NCBI RefSeq assembly: GCF_006345805.1
Contig: NW_021834676.1
Location: 1 to 46,758 of the forward strand
Length of the DNA: 46,758 nt
Direction of reading: 5' to 3'
From: Octopus sinensis
Lineage: Eukaryota
Part shown: positions 9,043-34,451 of the stretch, one piece after another
Numbering within the stretch: the stretch's first letter is position 1
How the letters are laid out: each line of letters starts with the position of its first letter
Program-made: the position numbers and the translations under genes
The notes under the pieces: generated by a model
Told to the model about the DNA's origin: nothing
The model's database searches: none
Seen by the model: the letters and a program-made list of their open reading frames with translations, nothing else

Positions 9043-9684
9043 CGTAAGTATGGATGGATGGATGAGTACTCGGCATATTTATTTTGTGTGTTTTACATAT
9101 TCTGATAGGAGCGAACAGTTGTGTCTCTGTTGTTGCTCGACCTTCCTGAAATAGCAGCCACATCCCCCTCAAACTGTACCTAACTGCCTTAAACAGTGAT
9201 GAACCTGTTAGTAATGGAGTCCTGGATACACTATGCCTGAAAACAAGATAGGATGGACCCTCTCTGATCAGTGTTAGTTTGTTCATTCAGGTCCAACCCA
9301 AATCCAAACAACAACAACTTACCCTGGTCTCTGCGTACAATTATGTGGACTGGCCCATCATTAATTAAACTCATTAGCCATAACGACTGTTAATTAGACT
9401 ATTTATTTATTTATATTGCCTGCAAAACTCACTAACTGAATAAAGTCACTGTGCAATACACAGCCTATATTCAGCGTCTGTGTCGTCTGCTATATATTTT
9501 GGTCGTCTGCAAATGGTTGTTGCTTCATCTAATGATTTTCTTAAACAAACAGATACTCAGAGGAAGTTATGTAAGAAGTTGTGTGGGTTTAATGAACAGA
9601 ATTGAGTATCGTTGCCTTCTTCGTTGCAAATCCTCCCAAATAACCAAACAGGCTAAACAATATACCATTCACTTCATACTAGTA

Positions 9685-9690
9685 TTTATT
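9685..9690 (-). promoter_or_regulatory. Candidate polyadenylation signal (AATAAA) for the His/Met-repeat gene
   Basis: TTTATT on the + strand about 290 nt past the stop at 9982; AT-rich context makes a chance match plausible. Confidence 0.3.
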
Positions 9691-9883
9691 CACTGAAACT
9701 CGGCTTTAGTAAAATAACAATTTCTTTTTTTAAAAAAAAAGAGAAGAAAAAAGAAAGGAAAAACCCAACTGGGACAATTTTGTTCATTGGATTAAAAATG
9801 TCAAGCTATCACAGTTCTTTAATGAATGTAATTGAAATAAATGACGCCAAACAGTATTTTTTGCATTTACAAGAAACGGAGAG

Positions 9884-9932
<49 letters not shown>

Positions 9933-9981
9933 TGTATGTGTGTGTGTGTATGTGTGTGTGTGTGTGTATGTGTGTGTTTTG

Positions 9982-12122
9982 TTAGCCTTCATCGTGTTTA
10001 TGTTTCTTTCCATTATCTCTATGAGCTCTATGGTTCATATGAAGAGGCGCAGTATTTCCAATTAAATCGAGATCACTGCGCATGTCACCAGGCTTGTGTT
10101 CATGGGTAGGCGAAAGATGTTTGCGGGCTTCTTCGGCCGTAATTACACCCACCCCTTCTTCAGAAGCTTTTTCCGTTTTATGACTTCTTTCCTTTCTATC
10201 ATTGTTATTATTATTCTTATCTAGATTAAAATATTTCTCCTTCATATCATGAATTGTTTTGTAAATAGAATATAAATAACCGCTAATTCGGCTTTCTTCC
10301 ACCGGTTTCACATTTTCTTCCAGGTCTTTGTCTTTACCACCTTTCACTACAATTTTTCTCTTTGCAAATGATGCTCCATCAGGTACCTTGTCGTTGCTTA
10401 AACTCTTATCTAGAGCATCGATATCAGGAGCCAAAACACTCCCAGGTTGTGAAAGAGGGTCAGCCTTTTCCTTTTTCTCATGTTCATGATGTTTATAACC
10501 AGATCTCGCATCATTATGCATTAAAAGACCATGTATTAATTCTTCGGCATCTGAAGGACTCGCTGGTTTATCTGTTTTACGAACTTTCTGGAACTTTTTC
10601 TCATCTTCATGGACATGACTTTCTCCTGGTTTGGCGTCATTATGCATAAGAACTCCATGAAGATATTCCTCATAGTCCATTGGACTATTTACCGTTCCTT
10701 CTTTTTTCTTCTTGTCAGCAGTATTTTCCTCTTCTCCTGAATGGCCATGGTGGTCGTTTCCAGGTTTCGAGTCGCCATGCATCATTACACCATGTAAATA
10801 CTCTTCATAATTCTGAACATTAAATTGACCCCTAAATTTAGGGTTTATAGATTTTTTGGCATTGTCCTTGGTGTGATGAAGAAGGCCAGCCTGTGAGTCA
10901 CCATGCATCATAACTCCATGCATTTGTTCTGCTATATCTTGAGGCCCAGCTTTTGTGTTTGTGGCCACAACATTCTCTGATCCGCTATGTTCATGGCTGT
11001 GATCCTTACCAGGGGCACTGTCACCGTGCATCAAAACTCCATGCATTTGTTGCTCTATGTCTTGAGGCCCAGCTTTTGTGTTTGTGGCCACAACATTCTG
11101 TGGGTCACCATGTTCATGGCTGTGATCCTTACCAGGGACATTGTCCCCATGCATCATAACTCCATGCATTTGTTGTTCTATGTCTTGAGGTCCTGCTTTT
11201 GTGTTTGTGGCCACAACATTCTGTGGGTCACCATGTTCATGGCTGTGATCCTTACCAGGGGCACTGTCACCATGCATCAAAACTCCATGCATTTGTTGTT
11301 CTATGTCTTGAGGCCCAGCTTTTGTATTTGTGTGTGCAACATTCTGTGGGTCACCATGTTCATGGCTGTGATCCTTACCAGGGGCACTGTCACCATGCAT
11401 CAAAACTCCATGCATTTGTTGTTCTATGTCTTGAGGCCCAGCTTTTGTATTTGTGTGTGCAACATTCTGTGGGTCACCATGTTCATGGCTGTGATCCTTA
11501 CCAGGGGCACTGTCACCATGCATCAAAACTCCATGCATTTGTTGTTCTATGTCTTGAGGCCCAGCTTTTGTATTTGTGTGTGCAACATTCTGTGGGTCAC
11601 CATGTTCATGGCTGTGATCCTTACCAGGGGCACTGTCACCGTGCATCATAACTCCATGCATTTGTTGTTCTATGTCTTGAGGCCCAGCTTTTGTGTTTGT
11701 GTGAGCAGCATTCTGTGGGTCACCACGTTCGTGGCTGTGATCCTTACCAGGGGCACTGTCACCGTGCATCATAACTCCATGCATTTGTTGCTCTATGTCT
11801 TGAGGCCCAGCTTTTGTGTTTGTGGCCACAACATTCTCTGATCCGCTATGTTCATGGCTGTGGTCCTTCCCTGGTGTCTTATCCCCATGCATCATCACAC
11901 CGTGCATGCTGTCGGCAACAGTTTTTGGTCCAGCCACGTCATCACCACCACCACCATCACCGCCACCACTGCTAGCGCCATCTGGTGGAACATCAGTTTT
12001 CACATCCGAGGTATTTTGATCAATCGCCATTTCCTTAACAAATTCCTGTTGATTCTGCTTCTGTGAGTCCCCATTGACCTCGGTCTGGTTGCCTTGGTAT
12101 TTCAGGTCCGTGGAATTGGAAT
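9982..12122 (-). CDS. Terminal coding exon (~713 aa) of an unrecognised His/Met-rich tandem-repeat protein; putative metal-binding, possibly secreted or luminal
   Basis: Uninterrupted 2.1 kb frame with non-microsatellite composition ending HKHDEG-TAA; 12 copies of (M/L/I)HG(V/L)(M/L)MH(G/N)D; canonical 3' splice site (polypyrimidine tract + TTTTACAG|AT, phase 1) immediately upstream; N-glycosylation sequons NST, NQT and NTS near the exon start. Confidence 0.85.
10897..11934 (-). repeat. Coding minisatellite, 123-bp (41-aa) unit, ~8.4 near-identical copies
   Basis: AACTCCATGCATTTG recurs at 123-bp spacing (e.g. 11281, 11404); unit DIEQQMHGVLMHGDSAPGKDHSHEHGDPQNVAHTNTKAGPQ. Confidence 0.97.
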
Positions 12123-12180
12123 CTGTAAAAGAAAACAGAGAAGAGATTAGAATGCAAGGAACAAACGAAGGAAAGAAGTA
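12123..12180 (-). promoter_or_regulatory. Intron 3' end: branch point, polypyrimidine tract and AG acceptor
   Basis: Minus strand ...CATTCTAATCTCTTCTCTGTTTTCTTTTACAG|AT; branch-point-like TTCTAAT at 12152-12146; AG at 12124-12123. Confidence 0.75.
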
Positions 12181-12572
12181 AAACCAAAACAAGTATTTTC
12201 TTTTTCCATTCAGTCCACGGTTTCTTACTTGGCCGCAACTGTGGATCCACATCAAAAACCACAGATAACAAAACAACAAAAGGACGTGCACATGAAATGT
12301 ATTAACTTGATGCTCAGGAAAGATGGAAAAAAAACAGTGGAGTTCTAGTTGTTTTTTTACGTTTCGTGCATAGCTCTTCGTCAGAAGGAGAAGAAAGGAA
12401 AAGTCCAGGAAACACACGTGTGTGCATACATGGCTGAAGATATATATATATATGAGAGGTCCTCTCATGATAACTGATGCAGTATTACGTGTTCTAACAC
12501 GACATCCACTTTAAGTGGGAGGATTAATACTTCTGTCGCTTTTTACTGCTTCCGACCACCTTTATTGTTTTA

Positions 12573-12690
12573 CTAGCAGAGATACCCGGCGAAGCCCATG
12601 TTACATACAATTGAAGAATTAGACTTTTCTGTTATATTTTCTCTAATGAACTGGAATATCTGTTTCGAATTTCATCAAAATTGCAGATGA
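12573..12690 (-). mobile_element. Helitron-like 3' end remnant
   Basis: + strand A|CTAGCAGAGATACCCGGCGAAGCCC = minus-strand hairpin remnant + CTAG|T; nearby AATTTCATCAAAATTG resembles the Helitron at 30339-31514. Confidence 0.45.
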
Positions 12691-12704
12691 GGGTTATTTC
12701 CCTC

Positions 12705-13570
12705 TTTACACACCTTGTTACTTGCTAGGGAGTCAATAGCCTTGGTGAGCTCTGCTATAGATGGCAGACTGTCAAGTTCACACATGACTGGCAAGATCTT
12801 GACGCCCTCGATTGCAGCTTCAGCTACCGTGGTCTCCCGTGAGTAGAGATCCTGGTATTACTCCACCCATCTATCTATTTGCTCGCTTTGGTCCTTGATG
12901 AGATCCCCAGTAGTTGATTTCAGAGGGGCTGACTTGGTTGCGGATGGACCGAGGGCCTTCTTCAAACCGGCATACATTCCACGGGTATCGCCACTGTCAG
13001 CAGCTGACTGGATACTCTGACAGATTTCTTGCCAATACCTATTTGCACAGCGTCTGGCGGTCAGTTGGGTTTTGTTTCTTGCCTTTCCGAGTTCTTCCAG
13101 TGACTTTGTAGATGAATCACTCTTGTATTGCATCAGAACTGCACGCTTTGCTTCGATAACTGTTTCCAGCTCTGAGAGCCCAGCACTGAACCAATCTGGC
13201 TTTTGCCTTTCTCTCATGCCGAAAGTATCTATTGATGTGGTATACAAAGCTTCCTTGATATAATTCCACCTACTTTCAGCTGAGGAGGTTGGGCAGCTAC
13301 TGAGGGCAACCTTGATAGAAACAGCAAAACATTTTCGCAGTGTTGGGTCCGAGGTTCTGGCAGTGTTAATGCGTGGTCGGGCCATTTTCTTGGAGTAATG
13401 GACTTTGTTAGGCAGAATCCTCACCCTACTTCTTATTTGTGAATGATCTGTGTCACAATCCGCGCTGTGGTAACTAAGGGTCAGTTGAACAGAATTCAGA
13501 TGCACAGGTTATATGTGCAAAATTCAAGTAGTCTCTGACCTTTGTCATTCATGTTGCCAATACCAAAACA
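12705..13570 (-). mobile_element. RTE-clade LINE fragment (end of endonuclease and linker before RT)
   Basis: ORF 12858-13505: SADCDTDHSQI (AP-endonuclease end), RERQKPDWF, ARRCANRYW..IQSAADSGDTRGMY, QIDRWVE. Confidence 0.85.
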
Positions 13571-13599
13571 CATGCACTTACATATATACATACATATAT

Positions 13600-14008
13600 A
13601 TACGATTGATTTGTTTCAGTTCCTGTCTACAACTGAGATACAACTGAGTGGGCAAACAAAAATATGAGACACTGCGTAGTGCTTTTTTATATTTTGATAA
13701 GCCTGGAACTTATTCTATCAGTTTTTTCTTGTGACACCAGTAAGTTCTGGGGATGTAAATAAACGAAAACCAGTTGTGAAGCAGTGATGAGGGAGAAACA
13801 CAAAGACACACACATAGACTTACATATATACATACATATACATACAATTGATTTCTTTCAGTTTCTGTCTACAAAATCCACTGACAAGGCTTTGGTTGGT
13901 CTGAGGCTATAGCAGAAGACACATTCCAAGTTACTACACAGTGGGACTGAACTGAGGACCATGTGTTTTGGAACCAAGTTTGTTACCACACAGCCACACC
14001 TGCACCTA
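13600..14008 (-). mobile_element. Diverged copy of the bipartite tRNA-SINE
   Basis: Reverse-complement similarity to 4841-5262 (ACCACACAGCCACACCTGCACCT head; GGGGATGTAAATAAAC body). Confidence 0.75.
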
Positions 14009-16291: not shown

Positions 16292-16506
16292 GAGATACCA
16301 CGACAATATATCCAAGCTTGTCCATTGGACACTTTGCAACAAGTATGAACTTGACAGAGCAAAAAAATTGGTACAACCACAAACCTGAAGGCATTGTAAA
16401 AATAGAAATGCAAAGATCCTATGGAATTTTAAGATTCAGTGCGACCATGAGATAGAGAATATGAAGCCGGACATAGTGTTAATTGAGAAAGAAAACAAAC
16501 GATGCT
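16292..16506 (+). mobile_element. R4/Dong-like endonuclease fragment
   Basis: WYNHKPEGIV, QCDHEIENMKPDIVLIEKENKRC; same family as the minus-strand copy at 18890-19100. Confidence 0.75.
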
Positions 16507-19720: not shown

Positions 19721-20348
19721 AGATTATTATCATCATCATCCCCATCATCATTATCCTCATCATCATCATCATCATCATCATCACCATCATCGTCATCGTC
19801 ATCGTCATCGTCGTCGTCGTCGCCATCGTCATATAATTTTCACAGCTATCATTCGTACATTAATTAATATTGTTTATCTTTCACCGCATATTTAATTCTG
19901 CTTCAGGCTTTTTTTCTTCGTAATGTTGCATAATTTAGGCCTAGATCAAATTAACTACCGGAATAATATACCACGTGATCCATAAATCTTCCGGTCGTCC
20001 GTGCATAAAATAAGTTCCACGTTTCTTTTTGTGAAACTCTCAACACATGTTAATCATTCGTCTCCTGTTTATTTTTCTTTTCGTTTGATATTCGACGGGT
20101 GACTGCTTCATTCCTGAATATCTTTAATATTTGTATATCTAACGCATTGAAGAAGAAAGTGGCTGGCATTATAGTAAATACAGCGGAGTATGCTAAAAAT
20201 AAAAACTCGAAGATTCTTTCATAAAATGATAATACACGTGGATGTAGGGCTGGCTTAAGGTACCGGCAACTCGAGCAGTCACCTGGTTTGCCATGTGCTA
20301 ATGGGCTCCAATGAGGGTGTGGCAAAGACGAGGAAAAGTTCCACTACC

Positions 20349-24163: not shown

Positions 24164-24590
24164 TGTATGTATGTATATGCGGAGCGCATAATATGTTCTT
24201 GTGAGCTGGCTGTTTAAATACGTCTGTATTTTTACACATGCAACAAACTCTGCGCATGTAGAGGCATGTGAGTGTGAACAGCACGCGTGCTTGCGTGTGT
24301 AGAGTGAGAAAGAGAGAAGACAAACGGACAGACAGATTGATAAGAATGAGAAGGATTTGTTTTTTAAAAATATTTGCTCTTTTACTCTTTTACTTGTTTC
24401 AGTCATTTGGCTGCGGCCACGCTGGAGCACCGCCTTTTAGTCAAACAAATCGACCCCACGACTTATTCGCTGTAAGCCAAGTAATTATTCTATCGGTCTC
24501 TTTTTCCGAACTGCTAAGTTACGGGGACGTAAACACACCAGCATCGGTTGTCAAGTGATGGTAGGTGGAACAAACCCAGACACACAAATA

Positions 24591-24655
<65 letters not shown>

Positions 24656-25134
24656 CGTATATATGTATATGTATATATATGTATGTAGTATGTATGTATG
24701 TAATGTATGTATGTATGTATATGCGGAGCGCATAATATGTTCTTGTGAGCTGGCTGTTAAATACGTCTGTATTTTTACACATGCAACAAACTCTGCGCAT
24801 GTAGAGGCATGTGAGTGTGAACAGCACGCGTGCTTGCGTGTGTAGAGTGAGAAAGAGAGAAGACAAACGGACAGACAGATTGATAAGAATGAGAAGGATT
24901 TGTTTTTTAAAAATATTTGCTCTTTTACTCTTTTACTTGTTTCAGTCATTTGGCTGCGGCCACGCTGGAGCCACCGCCTTTTAGTCAAACAAATCGACCC
25001 CACGACTTATTCGCTGTAAGCCAAGTAATTATTCTATCGGTCTCTTTTTCCGAACTGCTAAGTTACGGGGACGTAAACACACCAGCATCGGTTGTCAAGT
25101 GATGGTAGGTGGAACAAACCCAGACACACAAATA

Positions 25135-25199
<65 letters not shown>

Positions 25200-25676
25200 C
25201 GTATATATGTATATGTATATATATGTATGTAGTATGTATGTATGTAATGTATGTATGTATGTATATGCGGAGCGCATAATATGTTCTTGTGAGCTGGCTG
25301 TTAAATACGTCTGTATTTTTACACATGCAACAAACTCTGCGCATGTAGAGGCATGTGAGTGTGAACAGCACGCGTGCTTGCGTGTGTAGAGTGAGAAAGA
25401 GAGAAGACAAACGGACAGACAGATTGATAAGAATGAGAAGGATTTGTTTTTTAAAAATATTTGCTCTTTTACTCTTTTACTTGTTTCAGTCATTTGCTGC
25501 GGCCACGCTGGAGCACCGCCTTTTAGTCAAACAAATCGACCCCACGACTTATTCGCTGTAAGCCAAGTAATTATTCTATCGGTCTCTTTTTCCGAACTGC
25601 TAAGTTACGGGGACGTAAACACACCAGCATCGGTTGTCAAGTGATGGTAGGTGGAACAAACCCAGACACACAAATA

Positions 25677-25717
<41 letters not shown>
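24050..25717. repeat. Tandem triplication of a 544-bp unit containing a SINE 3' half
   Basis: GGAGCGCATAATATG at 24181, 24725 and 25269 (exact 544-bp spacing); units nearly identical. Confidence 0.95.
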
Positions 25718-25720
<3 letters not shown>

Positions 25721-25872
25721 ACGGGCTTCTTTCAGTTTCTGTCTATCAAATCCATTCACAAGGCTTTGGTCCGCCCGAGGCAATGGTAGAAGAGACTTGC
25801 TCAAAGTGTCACGCAGTGGGATTGAACCCCCGTGTGGTTAGGAAGCAAGCTACTTACCACACAGCCATTCCA
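25463..25872 (-). mobile_element. Bipartite tRNA-SINE (3' half triplicated, head single-copy)
   Basis: Reverse complement of 4841-5262; head at 25718-25872. Confidence 0.85.
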
Positions 25873-33323: not shown

Positions 33324-34451
33324 AGAGTCATCCCATGAATAATGCAGTTTTTTCAATTGCATAAATTAAAAGTCGGAGGAGGACGGGATAAACTACCTGC
33401 ATCAACTTGCTATAAAAGAAGGTAGTAATTTTACCTTGTAATTATTCTTAGTGTAAGTATTGAAGAGTGCAGTTTCATTTTAACAATTATTTTTTTAAAG
33501 TTATAATGGAAGTGACAAAAGAGCATATTCGGCATATTTTGCTTTATGAGTTCAATAAAGGCAACAATGCAATAGAAAGTGTGAGGAATATTAATGCAGT
33601 ATATGAGGATCAGACAATAAGCATCAGCCAGTGTCAATGGTGGTTCCAGAAAATCCAAGCTGGAAACTACAGCCTGGAAGACGAATCTCATTCTGGAAGA
33701 TCTGCAGAGCTTGACGAGGACGTCCTGCAAACCCTGTTGGAACAAAATCCCATCGTAACTGTTGAGGAACTAGCAGAAAAGCTTGGAGTTGGTCATTCAA
33801 CCATTCATCGACACCTGTGTGCCATCGGAAAAGTTAGCAAATTGGATTAGACTTTCCAAGTCTAATCGCATGCAGAGATTGAATGTTTGCTCTTCTTTGC
33901 TGTCACGTCTCACGAATGAACCTTTTTCCGACCGAATAGTGACTGGTGACGAGAAAGGGTTCTCTATAAAAATGTCAAGCGCCGAAGACAGTGGGTAGTG
34001 AAAGAAGAAACGCTGGCACCCCAGGCTAAAAATAGTCTGTACTCACGTAAGGTGTTGTTAGCTGTTTGGTGGGATATGAAAGGTTTAATCCACTTTGCAC
34101 TTTTAAACCCAAACCAAACGATAACAAAGGAGATCTACTGCGAACAACCTGAGCGGCTTAAGTGAGCGCTTGAAGAAAAACGACCGTCTTTGGTTTCAAG
34201 ACGATAAGGTGTTCTTCCATCAGGATAATGCTCGGCCACATACAGCAAGGATGACATTCCAAAGGCTGGAGCAGTTTGAATGGGAAACGATGCCCCACCC
34301 ACCATATTCGCCGGACATTGCTCCATCTGTTTATCATTTATTCCACAGTCTTTAAAATCATTTGGACGGAAAAAATATAAATTCTGTAGACGAGGCCAGA
34401 ACAGTACTAGAAGAGTATTTTTCGTCACGGACAAGTGAATTTTAGAAGAGG
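33324..34451 (+). mobile_element. Mariner transposon, defective, 3' TIR missing
   Basis: MEVTKEHIRHILLYEFNKG (HTH), IVTGDEK, HQDNARPH, HPPYSPDIAPS; 5' TIR GAGTCATCCCATGAATAATGC; frameshifts and stops. Confidence 0.9.

Follow-up and report, generated by a model that had tools for sequence, protein, structure and literature searches.

Cu(I) and Ag(I) sites outside the cytosol typically combine His with Met ligands, and His/Met copper segments occur in the Ctr1 ectodomain, the ATP7A lumenal loop, the Met-rich insert of CueO, and the CuM site of PHM. Lumenal proteins of another kind, the granins and the histidine-rich Ca-binding protein HRC, are acidic, hydrophilic, and largely disordered, and His-metal or His-quinone links are found in mussel byssus, polychaete jaw, and squid beak proteins. 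In bacteria, SilE and PcoE are described in PMC5008109 as disordered periplasmic His/Met proteins that fold on Ag+ or Cu+ and also bind Cu2+ and Zn2+; SilE in particular binds Ag+, Cu2+, and Zn2+, and folds upon binding.

Here, we analyse a 46,758-nt stretch of Octopus sinensis DNA (the window), which contains a terminal coding exon with twelve His/Met repeats. We put at roughly even odds (about 0.5) the reading that the encoded protein is a multivalent lumenal or extracellular metal sponge, largely disordered, with one three-His/one-Met site per repeat and with copper a likelier ligand than zinc.

The terminal exon and its repeat array

The window looks like octopus genomic DNA and contains many microsatellites and remnants of transposons (Table 1). 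The minus-strand frame from 12120 to 9982 encodes 712 residues, followed by TAA; a preceding reading made from the sequence alone (the sequence-only reading) had correctly called an open coding exon, but its 713 codons include the stop. The position of an intron end, comprising a pyrimidine tract and an AG at 12124-12123, sets the exon start at 12122, in phase 1. The exon has a composition of 10.0% His, 4.5% Met, 1.4% Tyr, and 0 Cys. No homologue of its N-terminal linker (residues 1-71) was seen.

Table 1. Coordinates of features in the window
Feature	Position	Strand	Remarks
Terminal coding exon	9982..12122	minus	phase-1 start, 2141 nt, 712 full codons and TAA stop (9982-9984)
Splice acceptor, pyrimidine tract and AG (AG at 12124-12123)	12123..12150	minus	RNA-like contigs stop, DNA-like contig crosses
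N-terminal linker, residues 1-71	11908..12122	minus	polar/acidic, Gly-rich; three N-glycosylation sequons
Twelve H1-G-V-L-M5-H6-G-D8-xxx-G12-xx-H15 units	10489..11907	minus	putative metal sites; predicted helix ending at M5/H6, then loop
Motif starts	11907, 11784, 11661, 11538, 11415, 11292, 11169, 11046, 10923, 10797, 10662, 10536	minus	
123-bp (41-codon) tandem array, 8.2 copies	10897-11907	minus	units 1-9
C-terminal helix, consensus ISDSxLxDIELMKxRYL	10219..10281	minus	family alignment and best-predicted element of model
C-terminal motif, consensus DxRHDLELIGxTxP	10045..10086	minus	family alignment
C-terminal HDEG tail (HDE-x)	9985..9996	minus	not a canonical ER-retrieval signal
Presumed 3' untranslated region, CA microsatellite	9083..9981	minus	AATAAA/ATTAAA hexamers from 9823, 9690, 9593, 9411, 9083
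Intron stretches	12600-13560, 13640-13990		high-copy repeats, very high depth in DNA-like run
544-bp unit, head to tail	24214-25813		third copy partial, the other two 100% identical; either recent duplication or assembly artefact
Mariner/Mos1 transposase remnant	33464-33850	plus	HTH_48, E 1e-20
Weak reverse-transcriptase match	409-924 (stretch 409-927)	plus	

Sampled words of the exon were present at 63-85% in 20 of the 24 listed sequencing runs, 17 of these 20 being RNA by guess (0 are recorded as RNA, and none carries a tissue label). Contigs of four runs were mapped on 11785-13990, a segment that includes the 5' 338 nt of the exon. In three RNA-like runs, from three studies, contigs match 11798/11833-12125 with 0, 0, and 1 mismatch, end their match at 12125, and continue for 292, 248, and 103 letters that fit nowhere on the window, while the read depth over 12155-12376 is zero; in a large DNA-like run, by contrast, a contig spans 11974-12293 unspliced. 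Splicing at the predicted acceptor would give such a pattern, and the exon is supported as real coding sequence. An assembly artefact is rejected as a source of the exon, as both relatives and run contigs match it.

An upstream exon, which would be expected to encode the signal peptide, was not found in the window by an ATG-to-donor scan, by inspection of all 25 [CGT]CAG|G[TC] sites, or by tblastn with 27 N-termini together with a scan for signal-like ORFs. Candidates at 16385, 20283, and 22437 were dismissed on inspection, the one at 20283 reading HGKP, which is not hydrophobic. No second copy of the gene was found within the 46,758-nt window.

The motif [MLI]HG[VL][ML]MH[GN]D occurs 12 times in the exon, the number first reported, with spacings of 41 (eight times), 42, 45, and 42 residues. 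For comparison, HG[VIL][ML]MH appeared once in 1 of 10,000 sequence shuffles and twice in 0. Units 1-8 contain 5-6 His and 2-3 Met each, in agreement with the original count. Of the second His clusters described for the copies, that of unit 9 reads LLHHTK, and HxHxH is present in 7 of the 12 units. Between units 2-8, 109-123 of 123 nt are identical, and the sole amino-acid change at family-motif positions is Leu/Met at position 4. Relatives have 1-10 units, with 6 in the Argonauta fragment and mostly 5-7 in bivalves. When the octopus array grew to 12 is judged from incomplete models, the O. bimaculoides and Argonauta records both beginning at an internal Met. In Pecten maximus (P0020), tandem expansion has independently produced 10 units, the majority of a shorter HxxMH form.

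Spread of the family and its conserved positions

A search with octopus residues 400-712 as query recovered 9 relatives among 2040 candidates, with identities of 88% for O. bimaculoides, 59% for Argonauta, and 25-31% for bivalves. A 28-sequence profile, the kind of search that had been suggested for the unit and the C-terminal region, recovered 83 relatives among 4199 candidates. Organism names are attached to 30 of the 83 matches, and all 30 are spiralian (records from bivalves, 16; gastropods, 4; annelids, 3; cephalopods, nemerteans, and flatworms, 2 each; and a chiton, 1). The basis for a limit to Spiralia is these 30 records together with word-limited searches, the other 53 matches being without a name. 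A second profile round over 8000 candidates added at least two further unnamed proteins and, among the matches listed, no new taxon. When 1.84 billion representatives were searched without an index, 31 matches were obtained, the longest of 529 residues, and no fusion to another domain was seen among those 31.

When the C-terminal parts of 23 non-cephalopod members, which lack the repeats, were made into a profile, it matched the octopus C-terminus with 41 bits (E 6e-5 at database size), which makes the homology independent of the His repeats. In a 26-row tree, cephalopods, unionids, imparidentian clams, and oysters each form groups, while the base is poorly resolved and many branches are long, a shape that is as expected for one fast-evolving orthologue. 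The alignments thus point to an unnamed and apparently undescribed spiralian-wide family, present in molluscs, annelids, nemerteans, and a flatworm. The protein had been called lineage-specific, a description that this spread contradicts, and a cephalopod-specific gene is dismissed on the same grounds, relatives being present in bivalves, a chiton, gastropods, annelids, nemerteans, and a flatworm.

No Pfam family was matched by more than 1 of the 79 members, NCBIfam gave no match above cut-off for 5 proteins, and the profile had no matching chain among PDB sequences at E up to 10, so that the first impression of an unrecognised family is borne out against characterised families in these three collections. 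The ESM Atlas returned nothing usable, a blank that indicates neither absence nor novelty. No description of the family was found by motif, identifier, or topic in the main texts of open full-text papers; a mention in some proteome table is conceivable, the coverage being open main texts and a few supplements. The family appears as an ancient one, mostly with one gene per species, across the superclade that holds a third of animal phyla, and is without a name, domain model, or paper found.

Automatic names of relatives such as 'filaggrin-2-like' and 'exchanger 1-like' mirror composition only, and three sequences from metagenome collections (P0046, P0083, P0035), which are probably host animal DNA, are wrongly named 'antitoxin HigA' or 'transposase-like'; metagenome scans yielded no flanking DNA of relatives. 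In Tegillarca, the gene is apparently split into adjacent N-terminal and C-terminal half models (P0025, P0034). An older Crassostrea gigas gene model (PMC6425005, supplement file 2) joins the family gene to an unrelated upstream repeat protein, and a fused model of this type would mask the gene in proteomic and expression tables.

A consensus built from 297 units of 78 proteins reads G-P-x-D-x-x-[ED]-x-[LM]-H1-G-V-L-M5-H6-G-D8-xxx-G12-xx-H15. The unit is conserved between flatworm and octopus, its copies lying on acidic linkers ahead of the C-terminal region. When units were anchored so as to leave the scored residue free, H1 was present in 235 of 235, M5 in 233 of 235, H15 in 214 of 235, H6 in 246 of 250, and D8 in 236 of 250. 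The His/Met core is therefore kept in orthologues, and its loss, named at the outset as a possible refutation, is removed. Across 68 units from 21 genera, M5 is invariant (68/68), with L38/M20/F7 at position 0 and L62/M6 at position 4. Set against the Leu/Met exchange at these two positions, the constancy of M5 suggests that selection acts on the Met sulphur rather than on side-chain bulk. Accordingly, although the count of 2-3 Met per unit was right, it overstated the likely ligands, the second Met occupying a Leu/Met hydrophobic position. In the same 68 units, His is present at position 13 in 16 and at position 17 in 26. The HxHxH cluster, from which an analogy with ZIP/ZnT loops had been drawn, is present in 31 of 250 family units, and the His at position 15 is the one cluster His conserved; the analogy is unsupported, and the conserved set, as read from the alignment, is three His, one Met, and one Asp. 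The 20-residue repeat core thus holds five nearly invariant candidate ligands.

The C-terminus carries a different signature. The octopus exon shares its HDEG terminus with the O. bimaculoides and Argonauta orthologues, and an HDE-x terminus is present in 16 of the 78 relatives, some of which are incomplete, compared with 0.12 expected from composition; 7 more have KDEL-like termini (e.g. KEEI, RTEM). These termini, together with a lone conserved C-terminal helix that looks like a partner-binding motif, would suit an ER/Golgi-resident chaperone or cargo adaptor, in which repeats and helix bind a partner and HDE-x serves as a non-canonical retrieval signal. We consider such an adaptor quite unlikely, as the strict terminus [KRHQSA][DENQ]EL is present in 0 of the same 78, partly incomplete, relatives, many bivalve members have unrelated basic tails, the DxDxDG loop of the EF-hand lumenal proteins MCFD2 and CREC is absent in the octopus protein, and PDB sequences gave no match. 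It would be compatible with a metal sponge if the client were a metal.

Predicted structure, secretory features, and the proposed metal site

An AlphaFold model from a 79-row alignment has a mean pLDDT of 59 and a pTM of 0.24, values of low confidence, and a two-unit model (pLDDT 59, pTM 0.27, also low confidence) has the same helices. Each complete unit is modelled as one helix that terminates at M5/H6 and places H1 a single turn from M5, followed by a Gly loop, and there is no packing between units. The long C-terminal helix comprises fragment residues 214-234, with pLDDT 77-88 in blocks 211-230. A contact between H15 and the helix is absent from both models. With the low-confidence model as query, Foldseek gave 0 matches and VIA-align a best Z of 2.4, confined to the C-terminal helix. 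Low-confidence models with isolated helices fit disorder, and the protein is predicted to be largely disordered, as 'beads on a string'.

A hydrophobic N-terminal stretch, scored with a hydropathy window and not with SignalP, is present in 23 of the 23 named full-length relatives and is followed by KP in 12. A published SignalP-positive, no-known-domain set includes chiton and Bathymodiolus members (PMC6425005, supplement file 2), for which no family name was found there. In the mature region, 136 of 139 Cys are in close pairs, as expected for disulphides and so consistent with a secretory-pathway reading. Judged from these features, the family proteins likely enter the secretory pathway. The absence of Cys, one of the first observations, holds for the exon and for the cephalopod copies seen but not for the family, since a Cys pair directly precedes the motif in 35 of 78 relatives; in P0024, P0026, P0029, and P0017, most units follow a Cys pair, with 7-12 Cys per protein. 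Cys-paired members and Cys-free cephalopods offer a natural test of whether a disulphide pre-forms the helix. A membrane-like segment (19-residue window >1.6) is present in 1 of 79 sequences, which, with the low frequency of HxHxH, rejects a ZIP/ZnT/Ctr transporter loop. A c-type haem motif is likewise rejected (CxxCH, 0 copies).

The signal-like start, the repeated motif, and the Cys pairs are also features of a multi-copy neuropeptide or prohormone precursor, from which the repeats would be excised as signalling peptides, and the members in supplement file 2 of PMC6425005 passed a published candidate filter. We regard a precursor as highly improbable: KR or RR is present in just 15 of 187 inter-unit intervals, and the motif had no match in the PMC8557429 supplement or in five other PMC6425005 files (file 3 in part), and no relevant match in the searched PMC3890597 supplement files.

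The charge of the proteins raises a further alternative. Of 11 members computed, 10 have a pI of 4.4-5.9, the basic Argonauta fragment (P0003, pI 8.6) standing alone, and GRAVY is -0.8 to -1.3. The computed charge of the octopus protein goes from -42 at pH 7.4 to +16 at pH 5.5, a swing that would suit acidic release from a metal sponge and also feeds the alternative of a granin-like granule matrix protein, whose negative charge would be neutralised as His takes up protons near pH 5.5-6, condensing protein and cargo, with Zn/Ca bridging as a side effect. A signal-like start and a KR/RR pair in the C-terminal helix of many members (19 KR, 18 RR) also fit a granin. Nevertheless, the octopus protein has EK at that dibasic position, the chiton and Owenia proteins are still strongly negative at pH 5.5 (-52 and -27, respectively), and charge condensation needs neither an invariant Met nor a fixed His spacing; we therefore think a granin-like role unlikely.

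A structural cross-linker of extracellular materials, acting through His-metal bridges or His-quinone links, would likewise be secreted, His-rich, and repeated, and the independent expansions in octopus (12 units) and Pecten (10) would suit it. The family, however, mostly has a single gene in each species, gives a tree roughly following bivalve groups, occurs in a soft-bodied flatworm and nemerteans, and, as judged from the octopus protein, is acidic, with few Tyr (1.4%) and 0 copies of GHGxY; we rate this role as very unlikely. A squid beak protein is dismissed by the same absence of GHGxY (which the sequence-only reading had stated correctly), by acidity, and by a family spread far beyond cephalopods.

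The metal-sponge reading draws on an invariant M5 beside positions that swap Leu and Met, three fixed His, and a likely oxidising compartment, which together suggest a soft-metal site. Specifically, H1, M5, H6, and H15, with D8, would close around a soft metal ion and thereby fold the unit, the return of H15 to the helix being suggested by the invariant Gly at position 12. Copper pumped into the lumen of the ER, Golgi, or granules, or into the extracellular fluid, would be held by the sponge and kept redox-quiet, would be released as His is protonated in acidic compartments, and would then pass to secreted copper enzymes or to disposal; with its tandem expansion, octopus would have twice the capacity. 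Three His and an Asp would suit Zn(II) as well, and the invariant His and Met could instead serve protein binding or pH sensing.

Oysters, mussels, scallops, annelids, nemerteans, and flatworms are not known to have hemocyanin. The gene is kept in these lineages, and a hemocyanin-specific role, such as that of a chaperone, is thus unsupported. The octopus expansion may still be linked to copper flux. It is conceivable, though rather doubtful, that a new helix-loop module of three His and one Met forms a dedicated lumenal copper carrier common to spiralians and that its doubling in Octopus tracks a high copper flux. If true, such a carrier would fill a gap in animal copper biology, namely how copper, once pumped into the secretory pathway, is held and passed on. 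Oysters and cephalopods accumulate Cu and Zn strongly, and a copper-binding family would bear on this accumulation and on the loading of secreted copper enzymes.

Comparison with known systems

The proposed sites would resemble the Ctr1, ATP7A, CueO, and PHM segments in drawing their ligands from His and Met, Cys being unavailable in an oxidising compartment; those segments are parts of transporters or enzymes, whereas the spiralian protein is free-standing, without a membrane segment or enzyme domain. It has the acidic, hydrophilic character and, by prediction, the disorder of granins and HRC, but homology to them is undetectable and the spiralian family conserves a strict His/Met repeat. Squid beak histidine-rich proteins resemble the octopus protein in being cephalopod, His-rich, and repeated, and differ from it in the points given above.

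Lophotrochin, trochin, and the 37 spiralian-specific genes of PMC7441323 resemble the family in having a conserved motif that is so far known from spiralians alone. The family motif was not found in four supplementary files of that paper, as covered by the first 400 characters of each cell, a range that includes the motif start of bivalve members (within about 60 residues).

The closest working model, by analogy and with no relation in sequence, is SilE/PcoE. The likeness, which on the spiralian side is predicted, lies in an extracytoplasmic protein that is disordered when empty, carries repeated His/Met motifs on short helices, and binds several ions per chain. The bacterial proteins differ in length, at about 120-140 residues, and their motifs MxxHx6-7HxxM and HxxMxxxHxxM are present 0 times in the octopus protein and in 0 of the 78 relatives, which argues for analogy and not membership. 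Features of the spiralian family beyond those of SilE/PcoE are a GDxxxGxxH loop, Cys pairs, and a C-terminal region that is conserved. If it binds copper, the family would be the animal counterpart of these periplasmic sponges, and lumenal copper buffering would be a candidate role.
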